NCBI GenBank assembly: GCA_964543815.1
Contig: CAZIZG010000003.1
Location: 17,833-81,832, forward strand
Direction: 5' to 3'
Length of the DNA stretch: 64,000 nt
Source: an uncultured Bdellovibrionales bacterium
GTDB lineage: Bacteria; Patescibacteriota; Minisyncoccia; Moranbacterales; UBA1568
How positions within the stretch are numbered: position 1 is the first letter of the stretch; each line of letters opens with the position of its first letter. Position numbers and translations under genes: made by a program. The notes below the pieces were generated by a model. That model saw nothing but the letters and a program-made list of their open reading frames with translations, did not search any database and was not told where the DNA came from. Of the stretch, positions 44,161 to 54,985 are shown piece by piece.

Positions 44161-44401
44161 TAGGATCTCCTTGATCAAGTTGCGGGAACTCCGCTCGACA
44201 ACCAAGAGGTTGAACGAGCGGATAATTGAAGCCTAGTCATAAGCCACAAGTATCCGCTCGCTCGAAACTATTTCACTGCAAAAATTGAAAGAACTTTCCT
44301 ATCGATAGTACCAAAAAGTTTACTACCGTTCAAGCCAAAAGCCCGAAAGAAAACTCTACGCCATATATCTATTTCTGTCAACCCCTAGAACCACAAAAAA
44401 G

Positions 44402-44457
44402 AAATCCCCCGGTCCGCGGTACGGAACGGGGGTATGGGGCCTCAGTGAGGCGTTGGA
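44402..44457. repeat. 56-bp direct repeat, copy 1 (terminator module)
   Basis: AAATCCCCCGGTCCGCGGTACGGAACGGGGGTATGGGGCCTCAGTGAGGCGTTGGA is identical to 45161..45216. It contains hairpins CCCCCG...CGGGGG and GCCTCA-g-TGAGGC. On the minus strand it is followed by a U-run. Confidence 0.8.
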
Positions 44458-44464
44458 AATCAGA

Positions 44465-45043
44465 CTAGCGGTACGTCATGTACGTCGCAGCGTAGCTCAC
44501 TTCCTCGAAAGAGAGGTACCCGACCTCATGGAGGTAGTATGTCGTACCACCATGAAATCGCGGGTTAACCTTGCGGACCGTGCGACAGCCCGTCACAAAG
44601 AAGTCACGGTAACCGAGCAGCATGGCAAGTAGGTCAACAGCCTCTTCCTTGTCCCACAACGGGTGATGCATGGCATCAATAAGCGGGTGGCAAAGTTCAT
44701 GAGCCATAGCGATGACCGTCGCATCAAACGTGGCCTTGGCCAGAAATGGCTTCCTGATGAAGACCGTCACCTCCGTTTGCCGGAATGCCTCGGATCCAAA
44801 AATTGGCATAACGTCAGGCCTGACCACCCACGCCGGCGCCTGGGGGTTACAACCACCAGAATTCACCAGTCCGAGCCGGACCCGGCAATCGAGATGGAGA
44901 CTCTCCTTGACGCGGTACATCATCCGACCGAACTCACCGGCGTCATACAGAGCACGCAGCTCTTCTTCTGAAACCAGTGGCCGCAGTGGCCCAAAGCTCG
45001 CCCGAAGTTGCTGGACATAAGACTGAATAAGTGCTTGGCGCAT
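44465..45043 (-). CDS. Putative zinc metallopeptidase-like protein (HExxH)
   Basis: 192 aa with IAMAHELCHPLIDAMHHPLWD. Flanked by the two copies of the 56-bp repeat. Confidence 0.45.
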   Translation of the reverse strand: MRQALIQSYVQQLRASFGPLRPLVSEEELRALYDAGEFGRMMYRVKESLHLDCRVRLGLVNSGGCNPQAPAWVVRPDVMPIFGSEAFRQTEVTVFIRKPFLAKATFDATVIAMAHELCHPLIDAMHHPLWDKEEAVDLLAMLLGYRDFFVTGCRTVRKVNPRFHGGTTYYLHEVGYLSFEEVSYAATYMTYR

Positions 45044-45160
45044 GGCACCCTCCTTTGCATACGTTGCAATTGATAAAAGACTCGAAAGGAACTACGAACA
45101 CTCCTTTATAGCATAAAAATACATTTTTGTCAATATGAGAAAACATCCGCAAAAAATAAA

Positions 45161-45216
45161 AAATCCCCCGGTCCGCGGTACGGAACGGGGGTATGGGGCC
45201 TCAGTGAGGCGTTGGA
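45161..45216. repeat. 56-bp direct repeat, copy 2 (terminator module)
   Basis: Identical to 44402..44457. Lies just downstream (minus strand) of gene 45228..45602. Confidence 0.8.
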
Positions 45217-47167: not shown

Positions 47168-47560
47168 TCAGGCATGAGGAATCTGCTCCACGAGGAGCGC
47201 CTGACCCGAACTATCGAGGTAAGTACAAGTCATCGCCTCCATGTCGACTCGCCACCTCTCTACTCCGGCTCGGGCTGCATCCTGACAAAAAGTGAAGTAG
47301 TCACTCCCTCCAGCCTGGTGACGAGCGAGGTCAGCCCGAAACGCGGCCGCATCTCCCATGGTTGCCACCTGAAGCGGCGCATAGATCGGTTCACTCTGAA
47401 GTACAGCATCTTCTCCCCCGACGTATTCCGCATGACCGTCCACGACAAAGACATCATACCTTCGCACGCCGAGAGCAATGAGCGCCTGTACGTAGGCAGG
47501 AAAATCCGCTCCACTTTTCACAACACTATGAGCCGCCGCAATCTGTTCCAAAGTAAACAT
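47168..47560 (-). CDS. DUF1398-family protein
   Basis: 130 aa beginning MFTLEQIAAAHSVVKSGADFPAYVQALIALGV. High GC. Confidence 0.55.
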   Translation of the reverse strand: MFTLEQIAAAHSVVKSGADFPAYVQALIALGVRRYDVFVVDGHAEYVGGEDAVLQSEPIYAPLQVATMGDAAAFRADLARHQAGGSDYFTFCQDAARAGVERWRVDMEAMTCTYLDSSGQALLVEQIPHA

Positions 47561-47598
47561 ATGGTTTCAAACAATCATTGTTCTAATTTTTTTATTCC

Positions 47599-47829
47599 TC
47601 AACAATTTTTTCTCAGGATGGCCAGGCACTCTTCATACGCGTCAGCGAGACCACCGAAATATTCATTACGACCAAAAACTTCTATGTCCTCACTTTCACA
47701 AAGTTCTTCCCGCCAAACCTCTCGAAATTTTTTTGCCAAAACCTCTATCTCTACTTCGCTTCGATGAGACATCATAATTAAATGGAATAATTTTGATCCC
47801 ATTTTTGATCGAAGCAGCAGAACTGTCAA
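47599..47829 (-). CDS. Small hypothetical protein downstream of res (low-GC island)
   Basis: 76-aa ORF. The likely start is MGSKLFHLIMMSHRSEVEIEVLAKKF... Weak call. Confidence 0.25.
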   Translation of the reverse strand: MTVLLLRSKMGSKLFHLIMMSHRSEVEIEVLAKKFREVWREELCESEDIEVFGRNEYFGGLADAYEECLAILRKNC

Positions 47830-47975
47830 ATAACCCCTCCTATCCCTTCAAAAACTTCTCGAGATATTTTTTAAAAACACTAAAAAGAATAATCACTCCC
47901 AATGCTAATCCCAAATATTTTATAGTTGTCGGACTAAAGAATGCTTTCAATAGTTCTAATAGGTTTAAATGCATA

Positions 47976-50633
47976 TCACATAATATCAATTAAATCTTCC
48001 TTCGTTGCCACCTTAAAATTCTCAAATCCGATCGCTCTAAAATGTTTCTCTCCACAGAAAATCTTCTGCTGCTCAACCAATGGTAGTTCAGCAGTCAAAT
48101 CCTCATATCCAAATTTTGTTTCCCGTACAAGATATAATTTTTCTCCCTCACTCGTATTCCATACAATTGCCCAGTCCGGAATATATCCCCCAAGCGGAGT
48201 ATCCACCACAAACCCGCGCGGAAGCTTTGTATACACCCGGACGTTTTGACTTTGTTCCAAATGCTCAGCAAATAATTTTTCGCCTTTACTATCAAACGCT
48301 ACACGATCAAATACCGACTTATCACTCTCAATACTCTTACTTGGCAACACTTCGAAATCCTTAAAAAGTACATCAACCTCCCAATAATCACCCGTTGGAA
48401 TATACTTCAATCCTTCATTGATCAATAAATCATTCAGACACCCATTCAAAATCACAACGACACTCCGAATGTACTCTTCTGGATTATCAAGCAGCAAATC
48501 AAGATTCTCTACACGAGACAAAGCATCGAAAACGGTCCTCCTCGTTAACCCAGTTTCACGCGCAATGCGATCAACCACATTCTGCAAAAATACCTTCCGA
48601 TCCAACTTTGCCCCAGCGGACTGGCCAGCATATACCGTCTGTATTTTGTTTCTTTCATCGAAATAGACATTAACCTTCTCAACCGTCACGATCAAATTCG
48701 AGATATTCCGCTCGTTGATCTTTTCGACAGCATTCCCGATCAATTTTTCTGTTTGGACTTCGATATTGAACTTCGTCCGCTGGCTAATTCTCTTCCAAAG
48801 CTCCTTAAAATCATCTTCGCCAATATACTTGGTCGGCCGCACCAACACCTTCTTTTCCTTGGCATCTGTCATTTCTACTTGTTCTGTATAACCAGCCTCG
48901 GTAAATTCCGCCTGCAACTGCCCGACATACTCCCGATAGCTCTCATTTGCCACTACCGTCAGAGTATTTATTCGGGGATCATACACGCGATTACCATTCA
49001 CATCCACAGCCAAGCGCAAACCGCGGCCGATTTCTTGCCGCTTTTTCATGAGAGAATTCGTCTCGCGCAAAGTACAAATCTGAAAAATATTCGGGTTATC
49101 CCATCCCTCCTTCAAAGCAGAGTGCGAAAAGATAAACGAAACAGGCTCAGAGAAAGAAAGCAATCGTTCCTTATCCTTCATGATCAAATCATAGGCCTCC
49201 TTGTCTATCTTGGAATCACCACGCGTATCCTGAAAAACCACCTGCCCCTTCTCTTTCTTACTGGCAAAATATCCTTTGTGAACAGTCTGTACATCGGCAT
49301 CCTTGAACTGATCATAATTCCCCTTCAATCTCTCAAATTCCTCAACAAAAATCTTCCGAATCAAACTCTCTTCGTGGGTATAATTATCAACTCGATCAAT
49401 GAAAAACAATGACAAAACTTTGATACCCATTCCAAGCTCTTCTTGTTTATCAAAATGCGCTTTGATCGTCTCGCGAATCTGCGTGCGAAATACGGCTTCT
49501 TTATTCTCACTCCCCTCATCCAAGCGATAATACTTTCCATCCGAAAGCTCGACGCGATTGTGTTGCGCATTAACGTCGTTCACTTGTAGTCCAGCATATG
49601 CCGCATTCTTGGTCTTTCGCGCCACATCATCCCCTGCCTTCAAGACAATTTCTTTTCGGACAAACTCATCATTGGCATTTTTTATTTCTACTAAAACCTT
49701 TGCCTTTGGGGACTCCCCTTTCTTCGTTTCAATACTCCGCACCCTGAAAACCAATGCATTCGAATCATCATCCTTCACACCAAATACCGATATCTTTTTG
49801 ACTAACCCTTTCTTATAAGCATCAATCGGCGTCAGGCGATAGACAAGATTATGGATCTCTTTGTGCGTCGCGCTATATCGTAACTTGAAAAGCGGAGCCA
49901 AATCAGCAATGGCCGCCTTCGAAAGTTCTGACTCCATATTCTGCGGCTCATCCATGATCACCACTGGTCGAGTTGCTGCCACGAGACTGATCGGACTTTC
50001 ACCATTGAAGCGATCCGGCGTCGAGCGCATGATATTAGTATCACTATTGAACGACTGAATCGTCATCACCATGATTTGAATGTCCAGCCCTTGTGCGAAA
50101 TCACGCACGCGCGAAAGTTTACTAGAATCGTATGCAAAGTATCCATACCCCACACCATACAAATCTCGAAAGTGCTCTTTGGTTTGTTCGAGTGTTTTCA
50201 AAACGCCCTCACGGATGGCCACGCTCGGAACAAGAATGATAAACTTCTTCAATCCATATTTCTTGTTGAGTTCAAAGATTGTCCGAAGATAAACATAGGT
50301 CTTTCCAGTACCCGTTTCCATTTCAATGGAAAAATCGAAACCACTCAACTTTTTATCTGGTTCACCACCAAACACATATTCCCCAAATGCACCAGCAAAC
50401 TCGCTAATATCATCTACTTTTTCAAAAAGGGAATTTCTTTTCTGTATAGAAAATAAGTTTTTTAAAATTCTATCCTGTTCAATCTCCAACTCATTTTTTA
50501 TTACAGAAACAGCCGAGCGCAACTCAAAAGACTCTTCACTTCTTACAAAGTTTCTTCCAGTATCAAAGATATCCACGATCGCATCGACCGCTTCCAGCTG
50601 ATACCCTAGATCTTTTGAGAATTTAAATTTCAT
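47976..50633 (-). CDS. res: Type III restriction enzyme, Res subunit (SF2 helicase-like endonuclease)
   Basis: 885 aa with Walker A METGTGKTY, DEAH-like VIMDEPQN, helicase motif VI-like IGRGLR, and a C-terminal endonuclease region. Last gene of the operon. Confidence 0.85.
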   Translation of the reverse strand: MKFKFSKDLGYQLEAVDAIVDIFDTGRNFVRSEESFELRSAVSVIKNELEIEQDRILKNLFSIQKRNSLFEKVDDISEFAGAFGEYVFGGEPDKKLSGFDFSIEMETGTGKTYVYLRTIFELNKKYGLKKFIILVPSVAIREGVLKTLEQTKEHFRDLYGVGYGYFAYDSSKLSRVRDFAQGLDIQIMVMTIQSFNSDTNIMRSTPDRFNGESPISLVAATRPVVIMDEPQNMESELSKAAIADLAPLFKLRYSATHKEIHNLVYRLTPIDAYKKGLVKKISVFGVKDDDSNALVFRVRSIETKKGESPKAKVLVEIKNANDEFVRKEIVLKAGDDVARKTKNAAYAGLQVNDVNAQHNRVELSDGKYYRLDEGSENKEAVFRTQIRETIKAHFDKQEELGMGIKVLSLFFIDRVDNYTHEESLIRKIFVEEFERLKGNYDQFKDADVQTVHKGYFASKKEKGQVVFQDTRGDSKIDKEAYDLIMKDKERLLSFSEPVSFIFSHSALKEGWDNPNIFQICTLRETNSLMKKRQEIGRGLRLAVDVNGNRVYDPRINTLTVVANESYREYVGQLQAEFTEAGYTEQVEMTDAKEKKVLVRPTKYIGEDDFKELWKRISQRTKFNIEVQTEKLIGNAVEKINERNISNLIVTVEKVNVYFDERNKIQTVYAGQSAGAKLDRKVFLQNVVDRIARETGLTRRTVFDALSRVENLDLLLDNPEEYIRSVVVILNGCLNDLLINEGLKYIPTGDYWEVDVLFKDFEVLPSKSIESDKSVFDRVAFDSKGEKLFAEHLEQSQNVRVYTKLPRGFVVDTPLGGYIPDWAIVWNTSEGEKLYLVRETKFGYEDLTAELPLVEQQKIFCGEKHFRAIGFENFKVATKEDLIDIM

Positions 50634-50637
50634 CCTT

Positions 50638-51381
50638 TTAACTAATGTTGTTATCCAAAGAAAACATTTTCACAAAAAACTTCCCCTTATCTGTTAGAGT
50701 TATATCCTTATTCTTATTAGAGAACTCTATTAATCCATTTGTATGTGAATATGCCATGACCCCCTTAGGAATGCCACGCTCCGTATAATCCCCAACAGTC
50801 CACCTGATACTACCCTCATACTGATATACAGATTCAATAAGAAAATTAAAGTCATTATAATATTCAGACTTTTTAAATGATTCATACTCTTCATTCCAGC
50901 TAACCGTCGGATCAATATTTCTGATTGCCTTTTCTTTCTTTACTTTTTCTTCAAGAACAACCAGCTTTTCAGTCTCAGCTTCTTCAAATCTCTTTTCGGC
51001 ATCGCTTAATTTCCTTTGTTCATCTATCCTTATTTTTCTTTTCTTTGTTCTATCTTCTTCATCTTTTTTAAAGGCTGGAATTAAAAACCAATCCGGAAAC
51101 TTCCAAATAACAAAGTACGTCAAAATAAATGGCATTATCCATGAAATCCAAAAATAAGGATCACTCACATTAAAAAATTCCTGGCTTAAATAATCACTCT
51201 TAAGTAATTGTTTTGACTTCCAAATTCTATCTTCGCTCACCAAAAAGACAGTGACGAGTAATTTCCAATGAAAAACTGACCACCAAATAGAAAACACACC
51301 ATAGATAGGAGTATTTACCTTTTCTTTCCAAGACTCGCTTATTGAGTCAGTAATTTCATTACTAACTTTTGGAATTTTCAT
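50638..51381 (-). CDS. Unknown 2-TM membrane protein embedded between mod and res (protein Y, 247 aa)
   Basis: Two TM helices (IYGVFSIWWSVFHWKLLVTVFLV; FWISWIMPFILTYFVIWKF), a highly charged coiled coil (KKDEEDRTKKRKIRIDEQRKLSDAEKRFEEAETEK...) and a C-terminal domain of about 90 aa. There is a 4-nt gap to res and an 11-nt gap to the upstream gene. Confidence 0.6.
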   Translation of the reverse strand: MKIPKVSNEITDSISESWKEKVNTPIYGVFSIWWSVFHWKLLVTVFLVSEDRIWKSKQLLKSDYLSQEFFNVSDPYFWISWIMPFILTYFVIWKFPDWFLIPAFKKDEEDRTKKRKIRIDEQRKLSDAEKRFEEAETEKLVVLEEKVKKEKAIRNIDPTVSWNEEYESFKKSEYYNDFNFLIESVYQYEGSIRWTVGDYTERGIPKGVMAYSHTNGLIEFSNKNKDITLTDKGKFFVKMFSLDNNIS

Positions 51382-51392
51382 AACACTCCAAG

Positions 51393-52379
51393 TTATTTAT
51401 CAGATTTAGTTAACTCAATAACTTGTCTCACTGGGTTTCCGGGATTACTTATGGTTTTTAAATAGCCCGTGTCCTTGGTATCAAAAATTGCTCTAGTTAA
51501 CTCAGCAAGCATTGCGTTGGCCGTCTCCTTATCATTTTCGCTTTCGGTCGGACGAATAGAATTTAATAGTGCTTGATGGGAATCAAGAGCATTCTGACGC
51601 TGGGTATTTACATAATAGAGGTGTTTTTCAGCAGAATAATTTCTATTGAAATGAGCAATAGCGAAACCTCCAATTGAAAGAATCAAAAACTTTAGCAATA
51701 ACCCCTGATGAAAAATCTCGGTTAGAACTTGACTAGTATTTTGATTCTGGACTCTTACAAACCAATCGGTATCCCCTGCAAGCAAAAGAATAGCAATAAT
51801 CAGTGTCACTCCAGCGCTCAAAGCCATATATGTCTGAGCGTTTTTTGCCGCTTGGTCATTTTTATCAGCACAATCCCCAAAAAACCTTCCATACTTTATA
51901 GCCTCAATCTTCTGGGCCTCATTCTGAACAGTACTGAGTAAAGACTGTGCTTTTGTAATCTGTGCCTCAAACTCCCCTATCTTACCCTGAGCGTCGATAA
52001 TCTGCCTCTTAAACTCCTCATTTTTAGCAGGATCTTTCAAAACAAGGAACGTGTAAAATGGTCCCATGCTTTGATGTAACTCAAACTCTTTATTTCTTAT
52101 GGTATCAAGCCATTGTTGTCTCTCGTTAATATTCTGAAAACCAAGAATTTGATTTTTCAGCTGCAAGAATTGCTGTAAATGAGTACGGATACTGTTTAAA
52201 AACTGTGGCGGAAAATTTTCAAGATCCGCATGATTAAAAATCGTATCAAAAACTTCCCTTATCCCCTCAAAAGAGGGCTTCGACTCTTCAAGGCTATAAG
52301 AACCCAGGTCCTTTCTTAACAAAGAAGTCCAATCTAAGCTTCTATATTGTTCTATAGAATCGCGAAGTTGCTGATCCAT
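51393..52379 (-). CDS. Unknown protein with an N-terminal helical domain and a 2-TM hairpin, embedded between mod and res (protein X, 328 aa)
   Basis: A soluble helical N-terminus of about 190 aa, then TYMALSAGVTLIIAILLLAG and LLLKFLILSIGGFAIAHF TM helices, then a C-terminal tail of about 70 aa. Lies 5 nt after the mod stop. Confidence 0.6.
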   Translation of the reverse strand: MDQQLRDSIEQYRSLDWTSLLRKDLGSYSLEESKPSFEGIREVFDTIFNHADLENFPPQFLNSIRTHLQQFLQLKNQILGFQNINERQQWLDTIRNKEFELHQSMGPFYTFLVLKDPAKNEEFKRQIIDAQGKIGEFEAQITKAQSLLSTVQNEAQKIEAIKYGRFFGDCADKNDQAAKNAQTYMALSAGVTLIIAILLLAGDTDWFVRVQNQNTSQVLTEIFHQGLLLKFLILSIGGFAIAHFNRNYSAEKHLYYVNTQRQNALDSHQALLNSIRPTESENDKETANAMLAELTRAIFDTKDTGYLKTISNPGNPVRQVIELTKSDK

Positions 52380-52384
52380 ACGGA

Positions 52385-54271
52385 TTAAATCACTTTCAAA
52401 ATTACATTCTTCGAAATATTCACTTTTGTTGTGTCATCAAGCGCAGAATCGAGACACACAAAAATATCTTCTAGTTTGAGACCGAGAGACTCGACTTGCT
52501 CTTTAGAAATTTTTTCCACAAATGTTACAGCAAGCTTTTTATTGTCATCAATAACAACCCAAGAATTAAGATCATCCTTTTCCTGTGTAACCTTAGCATT
52601 TAAACTAAAACCTTCTTTAACAAGAATTTCGTATACGACCGCACGCTCATCGTAACCGTCAACAAGTGGATACTCGAGAAAAAGTTTAGACTGAGCCAAG
52701 AGCTTTTCTTGATCATCATTTTCGGTCAAAACACTCCACTGTCGATAATTTGATTTTTGAAGTACAAAAGTCTTGAAGCCCGTATCTCCTTTATCAACTT
52801 TCTCTCCTGCGCGCCGGATACGCTCTCGAGAAATATCAGCAATGGTCTTGTATCCAGCTTTGTATGCCTCACTTTTCTCATCCGTCGCTTCTGGCAACTG
52901 CACACAGATCCACTTCCGATTCCCATCATCCTCATCGTTCAAATCCATCACTGCATGCGCTGTCGTTCCGGAGCCAGCAAAAAAATCAAGCACCAAATCA
53001 TCTTTTCTTGTGCCAACAGTCAAACACTTTTTTATCAAATCGATTGACTTAGGAAAATCAAAATAAGAACTACCCTCAAAAAGCTCTCTGAATATTTCCT
53101 TACCGAACTCGTTATTTATTTCACTTTCGATCCAAAGCGCCTTTTGTTTTGTAGTTGCTAACTCGCCACTTTCATCATGCAAATAGTCTTTTCTATATAC
53201 TCTCCAGGCCCCCGTATTTACTTCTTTAGCCAAGAGATTGCTTATATTTTCTGCAACTTTTTTCTGACCCCAGGTCCAACAACCCTCTACTCCTTTTGAA
53301 TTAAGTGGCATTGCCTCAACAATAAAGCCTTCATCCCTCTTTAAAGAAACCTCGTTGGTTTTTGGATTTACATAGATAGGGTAAAAAAGATTCGGGCGAT
53401 TTGAACGATTAAAGACCGGGTTTCGATTCCTTAATTCTAACAATCGAAATTTTCCATTCTTATCTTCTTTATTATACTCAGAAATCTTTTCTTCACTTTT
53501 CACAATTTCATACAGACCACCGTCTTCTATATTTTTAGCATATACCAAAATATACTCATGTGTTTTAGCAAAGTACCTATCAAGAGTACGTCCTCGAGGA
53601 TTTAATTGAACAATAATTTGAGCCACAAAATTCTCCTCACCGAAAACCTCATCCATGATGAGATGAAGATTGGCGGCTTCGTTATCATCGATAGAGATAA
53701 AAATCACACCATCTTCACGAAGAAGATTTTTTGCCAAAAACAGTCGCGGATACATCATGGTAAGCCAGTCACTATGAAAACGACCGTTCTTCTCGGTATT
53801 GGCAGTCATTTTGATCCCGCCTTCTGTCTGACCGGTCTGCTCATAATAATCAGCGACGCTCTGCGCGAAATTATCCTTATATACAAAATCATGCCCCGTA
53901 TTATACGGTGGGTCAATATAAATCATCTTAATCTGTTCGCGATATTTCTTCTGGAGCAATTTCAATACCTCGAGATTATCTCCTTCGATAAAAACATTCT
54001 CGGTCTTGTCCCAATTCTTGCTCTCATCTTCCTGAGGAAACAGAGTTCCTTTGGCTGTCTCACGAATCAGCCGAAAGGCATTACTTTTTCCAGCCCAGTT
54101 CAAACCATACTTTTCTTCTCTGCCAGCAATTCCCTCTGCGTCAAAAAACTTCTTGAGCGCATCAAAATCAACCGAGCCATCTTTTACAAACTGCGGAAAT
54201 ACCCTCCGAAGCTTCTCCAGATTCTCATTCTGTATGTTTTCAGATGTTGTAGAAACTTTTTCAATAGTCAT
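52385..54271 (-). CDS. mod: Type III R-M DNA methyltransferase, Mod subunit (N6-adenine, beta class)
   Basis: 628 aa with IYIDPPYNTGHDF (DPPY motif) and FDFFAGSGTTAHA (SAM motif I). Confidence 0.85.
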   Translation of the reverse strand: MTIEKVSTTSENIQNENLEKLRRVFPQFVKDGSVDFDALKKFFDAEGIAGREEKYGLNWAGKSNAFRLIRETAKGTLFPQEDESKNWDKTENVFIEGDNLEVLKLLQKKYREQIKMIYIDPPYNTGHDFVYKDNFAQSVADYYEQTGQTEGGIKMTANTEKNGRFHSDWLTMMYPRLFLAKNLLREDGVIFISIDDNEAANLHLIMDEVFGEENFVAQIIVQLNPRGRTLDRYFAKTHEYILVYAKNIEDGGLYEIVKSEEKISEYNKEDKNGKFRLLELRNRNPVFNRSNRPNLFYPIYVNPKTNEVSLKRDEGFIVEAMPLNSKGVEGCWTWGQKKVAENISNLLAKEVNTGAWRVYRKDYLHDESGELATTKQKALWIESEINNEFGKEIFRELFEGSSYFDFPKSIDLIKKCLTVGTRKDDLVLDFFAGSGTTAHAVMDLNDEDDGNRKWICVQLPEATDEKSEAYKAGYKTIADISRERIRRAGEKVDKGDTGFKTFVLQKSNYRQWSVLTENDDQEKLLAQSKLFLEYPLVDGYDERAVVYEILVKEGFSLNAKVTQEKDDLNSWVVIDDNKKLAVTFVEKISKEQVESLGLKLEDIFVCLDSALDDTTKVNISKNVILKVI

Positions 54272-54275
54272 ATCT

Positions 54276-54452
54276 TTATTTCTTCCAATCCTTAACCATC
54301 AATCCACCGCGAGTTCTTTTGACGACTACCTTTTGCTTTTCTTTCCATCCAAGCTCTCGAACGAGTTCGATCGGGAGCGTGAGGCCGATGGATTTACCAC
54401 CAAGTTTGGTCAGTTTTCTGACTTCTTTTTCGTTAGTCGCTTTGTTTGCCAT
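54276..54452 (-). CDS. AbrB/SpoVT-like small DNA-binding protein, possible controller of the R-M operon
   Basis: 58 aa, MANKATNEKEVRKLTKLGGKSIGLTLPIELVRELGWKEKQKVVVKRTRGGLMVKDWKK, a swapped-hairpin-type motif. Its stop is 4 nt before the mod ATG. Confidence 0.5.
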   Translation of the reverse strand: MANKATNEKEVRKLTKLGGKSIGLTLPIELVRELGWKEKQKVVVKRTRGGLMVKDWKK

Positions 54453-54470
54453 ACTCGAAAAATACGTAAT

Positions 54471-54725
54471 TTACCCTGTCAAATACGATTTGAGTCTATT
54501 TTTTAAAAACATTTTTCCATGGTAAGTTTTTAGATACTTTTCCCTATGCGTTGCATCTTGTTGATTGAGACACGCTTCATAGTACGCCAATTCAAGTGGT
54601 CGTCTATCTTTGGTTGATTCTACGTGCCCCTTTTTATGTTCCTCAAATCGTAATTTCAAATCCTTCGTATATCCAGTATAGAACTTCCCATCTTTTGCAG
54701 ATTTAAGTACGTAGGTATAGTACAT
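54471..54725 (-). CDS. GIY-YIG nuclease-family protein (UPF0213), second divergent copy
   Basis: 84 aa, MYYTYVLKSAKDGKFYTGYTKDLKLRFEEHKKG... Heads the low-GC R-M island. Confidence 0.75.
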   Translation of the reverse strand: MYYTYVLKSAKDGKFYTGYTKDLKLRFEEHKKGHVESTKDRRPLELAYYEACLNQQDATHREKYLKTYHGKMFLKNRLKSYLTG

Positions 54726-54985
54726 AACCTGACAGATTTGAAATTATTTAACAGGGTGAATTACGTAACTCCATTATACTCCCCTCCAAAAAACAAGCAA
54801 AAACCGGCCAAAAAGCCGGTTTCTGGAATATACTCATCTATATACTCTACCCCTCCGCCAGGACTTCAAAGCCACCGTAGGCGACGTATCCCTTGACTTT
54901 CCCGAAAAATCACGCAAACATGGGAGCTATCTGTTGCGCCCCTGTAACAGTCTCTTGTTCTTCCCCGAAAACCAGTGAGGTATCC

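Follow-up and report, generated by a model that had tools for sequence, protein, structure and literature searches.

We describe a Type III restriction-modification (R-M) operon in which two genes for predicted membrane proteins, here called X and Y, lie between the modification gene mod and the restriction gene res. The operon occupies positions 47976-54452 on the minus strand of the window, by which we mean the whole 64,000-nucleotide stretch analyzed (contig CAZIZG010000003.1, assembly GCA_964543815.1, from an uncultured bacterium placed by GTDB in the Patescibacteriota). Read along the minus strand, the genes are an AbrB/MazE-like gene (54276-54452; 58 amino acids), mod (52385-54271; 628 amino acids), X (51393-52379; 328 amino acids), Y (50638-51381; 247 amino acids) and res (47976-50633; 885 amino acids), all taken from a six-frame list of open reading frames (ORFs) and separated by gaps of 4, 5, 11 and 4 nt. 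A preliminary description of the locus, made from the DNA alone, had given the same order, reading frames and gaps, and these agree exactly with the ORF list.

The two enzymes are canonical. Mod matches N6_N4_Mtase (PF01555; 1.4e-34) and the PADLOC model MTase_III (6.5e-183 over residues 4-622), and its translation carries the IDPPYN and FAGSGTT motifs of a beta-class N6/N4 amino-methyltransferase. Res matches ResIII (1.8e-14), DEAD (4.2e-12), RE_endonuc (1.6e-28) and PADLOC REase_III (3.1e-225), and displays GTGKT, DEPQ and PD...ETK motifs, corresponding to a superfamily 2 helicase followed by a C-terminal PD-(D/E)xK endonuclease. Its score against NCBIfam PRK15483 was 299.9 bits, under the equivalog cut-off of 564. 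Judged by these domains and motifs, Mod and Res are a complete and intact Type III pair.

The 58-amino-acid protein belongs to the SpoVT/AbrB family (PF04014; 2.8e-7, 30.8 bits against a cut-off of 24.7), and a weaker match to TIGR02609 (doc_partner, antitoxins that partner Doc toxins; 1.9e-4) fell below the cut-off. The AbrB-like identity proposed earlier for this gene is thus genuine, and a homologue is conserved upstream of mod in a related operon (loci L005 and L026). It is a candidate regulator or orphan antitoxin. In that relative (L005 7018-7215, and also in L006, L007 and L026), a 65-amino-acid ORF with a hydrophobic C-terminal tail lies between the AbrB/MazE-like gene and mod; it is absent from the window and is conceivably a small membrane toxin whose partner is the MazE-like protein.

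No match to X was found at E < 0.1 in Pfam, NCBIfam or PADLOC, aside from two at chance level, nor did any candidate model of PADLOC-DB 2.0 recognize it. The AlphaFold2 model of X is all-helical with a mean predicted local distance difference test score (pLDDT) of 77, rising above 90 over residues 1-110, and consists of an N-terminal bundle, an 85-residue stalk helix that runs into the first hydrophobic helix, a hairpin and then long helices. The transmembrane (TM) hairpin was placed by Kyte-Doolittle hydropathy and AlphaFold2 at residues ~183-205 and ~224-246, joined by a short acidic loop (51642-51833, minus strand). The distribution of charge suggests that both termini face inwards, with the long post-TM helices in the cytoplasm. 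The most conserved stretch in an alignment of 115 relatives (~22 % column identity) follows the second TM helix, and residues F167, H253, N258, R261, N263, L265 and G305 are nearly invariant.

The family to which X belongs is large: when 1.84 billion cluster representatives were searched with a profile, 2,627 proteins were retrieved at E <= 1e-3, each standing for a cluster at 50 % identity, most of them 320-350 amino acids long and aligned end to end. One relative, P0145, reaches the uncharacterized Pfam family DUF6161 (PF19658) with 27.8 bits at a gathering cut-off of 27. An alignment of the X clade (A1) matched P0145 in hhalign with a probability of 99.4 % and an E value of 5.5e-22 over 190 columns, covering residues 121-328 of X, and the X profile retrieved P0145 in hmmsearch at 5.5e-24. 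Matches to DUF6161 at E < 0.05 were returned by 9 of the 115 relatives; the Vibrio relative scored 23.8 bits and P0125 15.5 bits. X itself showed no match to the Pfam model at E < 0.1 and does not reach the gathering cut-off. Because of the P0145 score, its alignment with the X clade and the nine matching relatives, we consider the C-terminal half of X (residues 121-328; 51396-52019, minus strand), which comprises the stalk helix, the TM hairpin and the conserved post-TM helices, to be a divergent DUF6161 domain. X and DUF6161 share the stalk, the two-TM hairpin and the motifs H-x4-N-x2-RQN-x-L and NA-x-L...AIF...TGY, whereas a conserved N-terminal bundle of ~115 amino acids is additional in the X family. 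DUF6161 has been predicted to be defensive by a protein language model, with no known homology (10.1101/2025.01.08.631966), and no account of its residence in restriction operons was found in the literature searched.

A total of 34 distinct loci of the X clade emerged from searches for homologues and from scanning contigs of genomes and metagenomes, and their neighbors were classified by Pfam and by phmmer against reference proteins. A third homologue search, with a broad alignment and filled to its candidate cap, contributed little more. X adjoins R-M genes in 26 of them, with gaps of typically 2-17 nt. Type I operons account for 13 loci, laid out as hsdM-(cargo)-hsdS-X-hsdR: hsdS, X and hsdR are consecutive in L019, L020, L021, L036, L039, L041-L043, L045 and L047, additional cargo separates X from hsdR in L037 and L046, and the contig of L044 ends after X. 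Six further loci are BsaXI-like Type IIB operons with the order RM-X-S, in which the large subunit joins an HSDR_N_2 nuclease domain to N6_Mtase and matches RM.BsaXI (PDB 8w0p) at 1.2e-33; a reading of these loci as nuclease-less M-X-S sets resembling Ronin was ruled out by this fused nuclease domain. Another six are Type III operons or their remnants, among them the arrangements Fic-mod-284 aa-X-res and X-mod, and in one locus X follows a PLD-SNF2 helicase and an Eco57I-type methylase. Eight loci have no adjacent R-M gene; five of these are on truncated contigs, and in one X faces a GmrSD gene. The X clade lives almost exclusively inside Type I, IIB and III R-M operons, so that the linkage to restriction first noticed in a single genome holds across many.

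The hosts of the clade include several lineages of the candidate phyla radiation (CPR), Gamma- and Alphaproteobacteria, Bacteroidota, Verrucomicrobiota and Bdellovibrionota. In a neighbor-joining tree of X drawn without support values, Type III contexts appear in at least three places, which implies repeated switches between restriction types. X has been retained beside decayed restriction genes in L010 and L025. Other cargo in X-bearing operons encodes NYN, PIN_12, RhuM, Bro-N and DUF2130 proteins and a HigBA-like pair. A second cargo slot, between hsdM and hsdS, is filled in L036, L039, L041, L045, L046 and L021 by NYN, Bro-N plus DUF2130, PIN_12 or RhuM, and in L037 (8006-9438) a HigB-like gene and a gene resembling helix-turn-helix/ImmA proteins stand between X and hsdR.

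Distant relatives of X (21-26 % identity) are found outside restriction operons with the same full-length architecture, including the N-terminal domain. One of them is a single-ORF cassette between VCR-like attC repeats in a Vibrio tubiashii array, another sits beside a serine recombinase, and some are carried on Piscirickettsia plasmids rich in insertion sequences. The Vibrio array (L055; plasmid pFP31, NZ_CP117031, 184366-203337) is of the integron type with VCR-like attC repeats of ~130 nt, and its cassettes encode, in order, Hhe, a HEPN-associated protein, a 5'-nucleotidase, the DUF6161-like protein, a GIY-YIG nuclease and an AbiH-family protein. A GIY-YIG nuclease is thus the cassette directly after the X-like gene, and stand-alone GIY-YIG genes of 81-88 amino acids also occur within a few kb of X loci in unrelated genomes (L010 2205-2471; L011 3332-3577; window 54471-54725). 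A phage origin was considered and rejected, as no relatives of X or Y were detected in IMG/VR contigs or GenBank phages.

Y had no match at E < 0.1 in Pfam, NCBIfam or PADLOC. By hydropathy and AlphaFold2 it has two hydrophobic helices (residues ~25-47 and ~75-94), which are aromatic-rich and less hydrophobic than those of X, followed by a charged coiled coil and a C-terminal winged-helix-like domain (residues 158-247; 50641-50910, minus strand; pLDDT ~88). This domain is modeled as a three-helix bundle with a beta-hairpin wing, resembling solved winged-helix domains. Only 12 homologues of Y were found, and in 4 of 6 contexts they lie outside mod-res operons and without X. In L013 the gene follows a DUF3761 gene near a Schlafen/AlbA_2 gene, in L014 it comes directly after a Schlafen/AlbA_2 gene, and in L053 it belongs to an integrase/Rep element with an AAA_15/21 ATPase and a deaminase. 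In L054 (1822-4481) an N6_N4 methylase (476 amino acids), the Y homologue (243 amino acids) and a 115-amino-acid ORF are inserted between rpsJ (S10) and rplC (L3), an unusual site inside a ribosomal-protein operon. From these four contexts lacking both X and mod-res it follows that Y is a sporadic mobile gene and not a partner of X. Schlafen/AlbA_2 genes lie near Y in 3 of 6 contexts (L005 5236-6666, L013 5955-7025 and L014 6466-7743), which may reflect plain co-location in defense islands or a real link.

The arrangement mod-X-Y-res was not found beyond the lineage of the window and one close relative (L005, L006, L007 and L026), where the order is AbrB-like gene, 65-amino-acid ORF, mod, X, Y and res, and the genomic surroundings are wholly different. 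Identity between the two operons is 76 % for X, 69 % for Y, 59 % for mod and 62 % for res, and synonymous sites are saturated (pS 0.62-0.77). Because X and Y have kept an identity above that of mod and res despite this saturation, the comparison marks both as real genes under purifying selection. They are not paralogues (hhalign probability 0.2 %), and X occurs without Y in ~30 other loci, Type I, Type IIB and further Type III operons among them. The preliminary description had seen X and Y as membrane proteins free of enzyme motifs, and so they appear: each has a TM hairpin by hydropathy and AlphaFold2, and neither matched a family. Its further proposal, that the two form a dedicated sensor and effector pair, is not supported, since their sequences are unrelated, they co-occur in two lineages only and each is found elsewhere without the other. 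The refutation that it had itself named, occurrence independent of R-M genes, counts against Y and against X and Y as a pair, whereas X withstands it. To call the arrangement a novel defense module was an overstatement, as passengers embedded in restriction operons are already established.

The whole block lies in a low-GC islet of ~7.2 kb (~47550-54800, without strand) that was delimited by 200-nt composition profiles and has sharp edges. GC content is 39.6 % for the operon, 32 % for Y alone, 48.6 % for the window and 55-63 % for the flanks; only Y comes near the figure of about 33 % given earlier for the entire block. A GIY-YIG gene (54471-54725, minus strand; 84 amino acids; PF01541 at 1.6e-14; 35 % GC) also falls inside the islet, with 18 nt between it and the AbrB-like gene downstream, and the operon transcript may begin with it. 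The block had been described as flanked by GIY-YIG genes; this is the only one, and Pfam assigned none of the ORFs beyond the opposite end to that family. The suspected mobile defense island was borne out, in that the block has the character of a horizontally acquired low-GC defense islet. A terminator-like hairpin with a T-run (54798-54825, minus strand), a pattern match from a consensus scan and reading of the sequence, would end the upstream gene, and downstream of it a TATAAT box (~54773-54778, minus strand), likewise a pattern match only, is probably where the islet transcript starts. Two small ORFs of 49 and 76 amino acids follow res (47599-47989, minus strand); they derive from the ORF list and the gene calls of public contigs, and their status as genes is uncertain. 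Overlapping the res stop codon, the 49-amino-acid ORF includes a hydrophobic segment; the 76-amino-acid ORF matched no Pfam family, and both are absent downstream of res in L005. No tRNA genes were found in the window. Locus L004, which had been considered as a strain variant with another flank, is 100 % identical to the window and differs in gene calls alone. Farther along the window, a 63-nt direct repeat (44395-44457 and 45154-45216; 97 % identical) brackets a minus-strand ORF (44465-45043); read on the minus strand, each copy is a G+C hairpin followed by a T-run, resembling a duplicated terminator module.

We propose that the islet holds an ordinary Type III core together with two captured mobile accessory genes, of which X would serve as a back-up defense, and we give this explanation as a whole about an even chance of being right. 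X and Y would have been captured between mod and res as independently mobile genes and would be co-transcribed and translationally coupled with them. X is pictured as a cytoplasm-facing, all-helical protein with a conserved polar segment beside the membrane. When restriction fails or is inhibited, X would oligomerize and perturb the membrane, with abortive infection or exclusion as the outcome. Its place in the restriction operon would secure joint expression and joint transfer, as for PrrC, DarTG2, TgvAB and RonA. Y would be a separate membrane-anchored winged-helix passenger, present elsewhere in mobile and defense islands, whose ligand at the membrane may be nucleic acid or a partner protein. 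The AbrB/MazE-like gene, in its candidate roles, probably represses the operon promoter or is a remnant antitoxin. For X in particular, a self-contained, membrane-acting second line of defense is the most likely role. An autonomous membrane module is favored over a partner-specific subunit because the architecture of X is common to three enzyme types that have no subunit in common, and occurs also as a lone cassette. Several points weigh against this proposal. X matches no PADLOC defense model and no Pfam family, and the AbiZ and SLATT matches come from a few distant relatives, lie for the most part under threshold and may be a product of coiled-coil and TM composition. The loci are mostly metagenomic and some contigs are truncated, and the missing support values bear on the tree. 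X is frameshifted in the Type I operon L021 and hence dispensable there, the distant relative L051 sits among housekeeping genes, and the strict slot of X, directly ahead of the R subunit or flanked by RM and S, could mean that X is functionally bound to the enzymes in a specific way and not simply carried along.

In the main rival, X is a latent membrane toxin held inactive by the R-M complex (Mod2Res2, HsdM2S or RM-S) and freed to kill or arrest the cell once that complex is inhibited by an anti-restriction protein or a DNA mimic from a phage; X would then be a large analogue, with two TM helices, of RonA/Ronin or PrrC. The position of X in many Type I operons, hsdS-X-hsdR with gaps of 2-6 nt, is that of PrrC. 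In Ronin a TM toxin is tied to HsdMS, and cells with the Type III enzyme EcoR22I are driven to death by Ocr; restriction guardians are recognized in reviews, and X is better conserved than mod and res. It remains the most interesting reading because of the Ronin and EcoR22I precedents, but X accompanies three mechanistically different enzyme types without a common subunit, its domain architecture recurs in stand-alone relatives without restriction genes, and it persists beside decayed restriction genes, and we regard it as unlikely. A broader version is a speculation to which we give a little less credence: the X clade would be a general restriction guardian, its two-TM effectors keeping physical watch over Type I, IIB and III enzymes alike and turning inhibition or overload into membrane depolarization, with Y as a membrane-anchored DNA-binding sensor in this lineage. 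If it were true, back-up immunity in the style of Ronin and PrrC would take in a widespread family found with particular frequency in ultra-small CPR bacteria.

That X, Y or both have no antiviral activity of their own, being selfish or neutral cargo or tuning expression of the downstream R subunit, is doubtful. The frameshift in L021, the housekeeping neighborhood of a distant relative, the want of matches to validated defense proteins and the Y homologue inserted with a methylase among ribosomal-protein genes all fit such cargo, but the inserts are under stronger purifying selection than the two enzyme genes, restriction operons of different phyla repeatedly contain members of the X clade, and relatives of X are found in defense-rich integron and plasmid contexts. 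EcoKI has been reported to be membrane-associated, and X, here joined by Y with its winged helix, might anchor the restriction complex or incoming DNA to the inner membrane at the site of DNA entry; cytoplasmic domains borne on a membrane hairpin in both proteins, the Y winged-helix domain and the adjacency of X to the R subunit gene suit a tether of this kind. It would require a partner-specific interface, yet X is present in Type I, IIB and III operons and alone, most restriction systems function without a tether, and Y is absent from nearly all X loci, which makes the idea improbable. Least probable, and by our estimate very unlikely, is the integrated four-component Mod-X-Y-Res system of the preliminary description, with X and Y as dedicated sensor and effector. 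Tight gaps among the four genes, the order kept in L005 and L026 in a different genomic context and purifying selection on both inserts speak for it; it is opposed by the restriction of the X-Y pair to two close lineages, by X without Y in ~30 loci, by Y without X in 4 of 6 contexts and by the unrelatedness of the two proteins.

Restriction-modification is the commonest bacterial defense, and phages routinely disarm it. Of the back-up genes built into restriction operons, only a handful are understood (PrrC, Ronin, DarTG2 and TgvAB). Against this background X is a concrete and widespread candidate, with ~2,600 family representatives and one clade whose members lie within operons of three enzyme types in many phyla. 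Should X indeed be a membrane effector, DUF6161-type proteins would gain a function, Type III and Type IIB operons would be seen to host embedded cargo as Type I operons do, and light would be shed on the little-known defenses of CPR bacteria. If X is a mere passenger, the locus would still illustrate cleanly how an operon captures mobile accessory genes. What is new here is a previously undescribed restriction-embedded clade related to DUF6161, together with an unrelated membrane-anchored winged-helix passenger.

Set beside known systems, the operon keeps the enzymes of Type III R-M and departs from its bare two-gene mod-res layout, as X and Y intervene. Its 58-amino-acid protein differs from the controller (C) proteins of R-M systems, which are of the Xre-type helix-turn-helix kind and are encoded upstream of the nuclease gene with a C-box operator; here the fold is SpoVT/AbrB, not helix-turn-helix, and the gene is upstream of mod, not res. 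AbiZ of Lactococcus causes premature lysis of infected cells in cooperation with the phage holin (PMC13064643). AbiZ and SLATT proteins are TM-hairpin membrane proteins that bring about lysis or membrane damage on infection, and X, whose homology to either is conjectural, also has a TM hairpin. In profile comparison only, 5 of the 115 X relatives match the PADLOC AbiZ model (best 6.7e-6) and X does not. A SLATT-like fold had been suggested as worth looking for; X had no SLATT match, and a single relative of the 115 (P0144) reached SLATT_1 below threshold, at 25 bits against a cut-off of 26.3. Weak RTasSLATT matches among a few relatives and LeoBC matches in 9 of 115 are leads only, and no SMODS, SLOG or reverse-transcriptase partner was present in the ~40 loci examined.

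A parallel in position is PrrC of the EcoprrI Type Ic locus (and likewise RloC), an accessory gene between hsdS and hsdR that acts as a back-up when restriction is inhibited. X occupies the same slot in the 13 Type I operons, and the equivalent of this slot in the window is the interval between mod and res. PrrC is a soluble ABC-ATPase and anticodon nuclease, whereas X is a two-TM helical protein found also in Type IIB and Type III operons and alone, and no ABC-type NTPase or anticodon-nuclease domain was detected in X or Y with Pfam, PADLOC and NCBIfam. Ronin (RonA, HsdS and HsdM) links a membrane gene to methylase and specificity genes and is proposed to disrupt the inner membrane upon encountering anti-restriction proteins (Silas et al., 10.1101/2023.04.06.535777). 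By description the two are set apart: RonA has 61 amino acids and one TM helix and its system has no nuclease, X has 328 amino acids and two TM helices, and the operons that host X, unlike Ronin, keep a nuclease in the form of Res, HsdR or the nuclease domain of Type IIB RM. Independent modules, placed between hsdS and hsdR or at other points inside R-M, BREX, DISARM and Hma operons, have been brought to light by guilt-by-embedding (Payne et al., 10.1101/2024.01.29.577857), and DarTG2 and TgvAB are validated defense genes embedded in Type I operons. The validated embedded genes are nucleases, toxin-antitoxin pairs and GmrSD-like enzymes, whereas X carries no enzyme motif; and the guilt-by-embedding survey covered Hma, BREX, DISARM and Type I R-M, whereas X resides in Type III and Type IIB operons as well.

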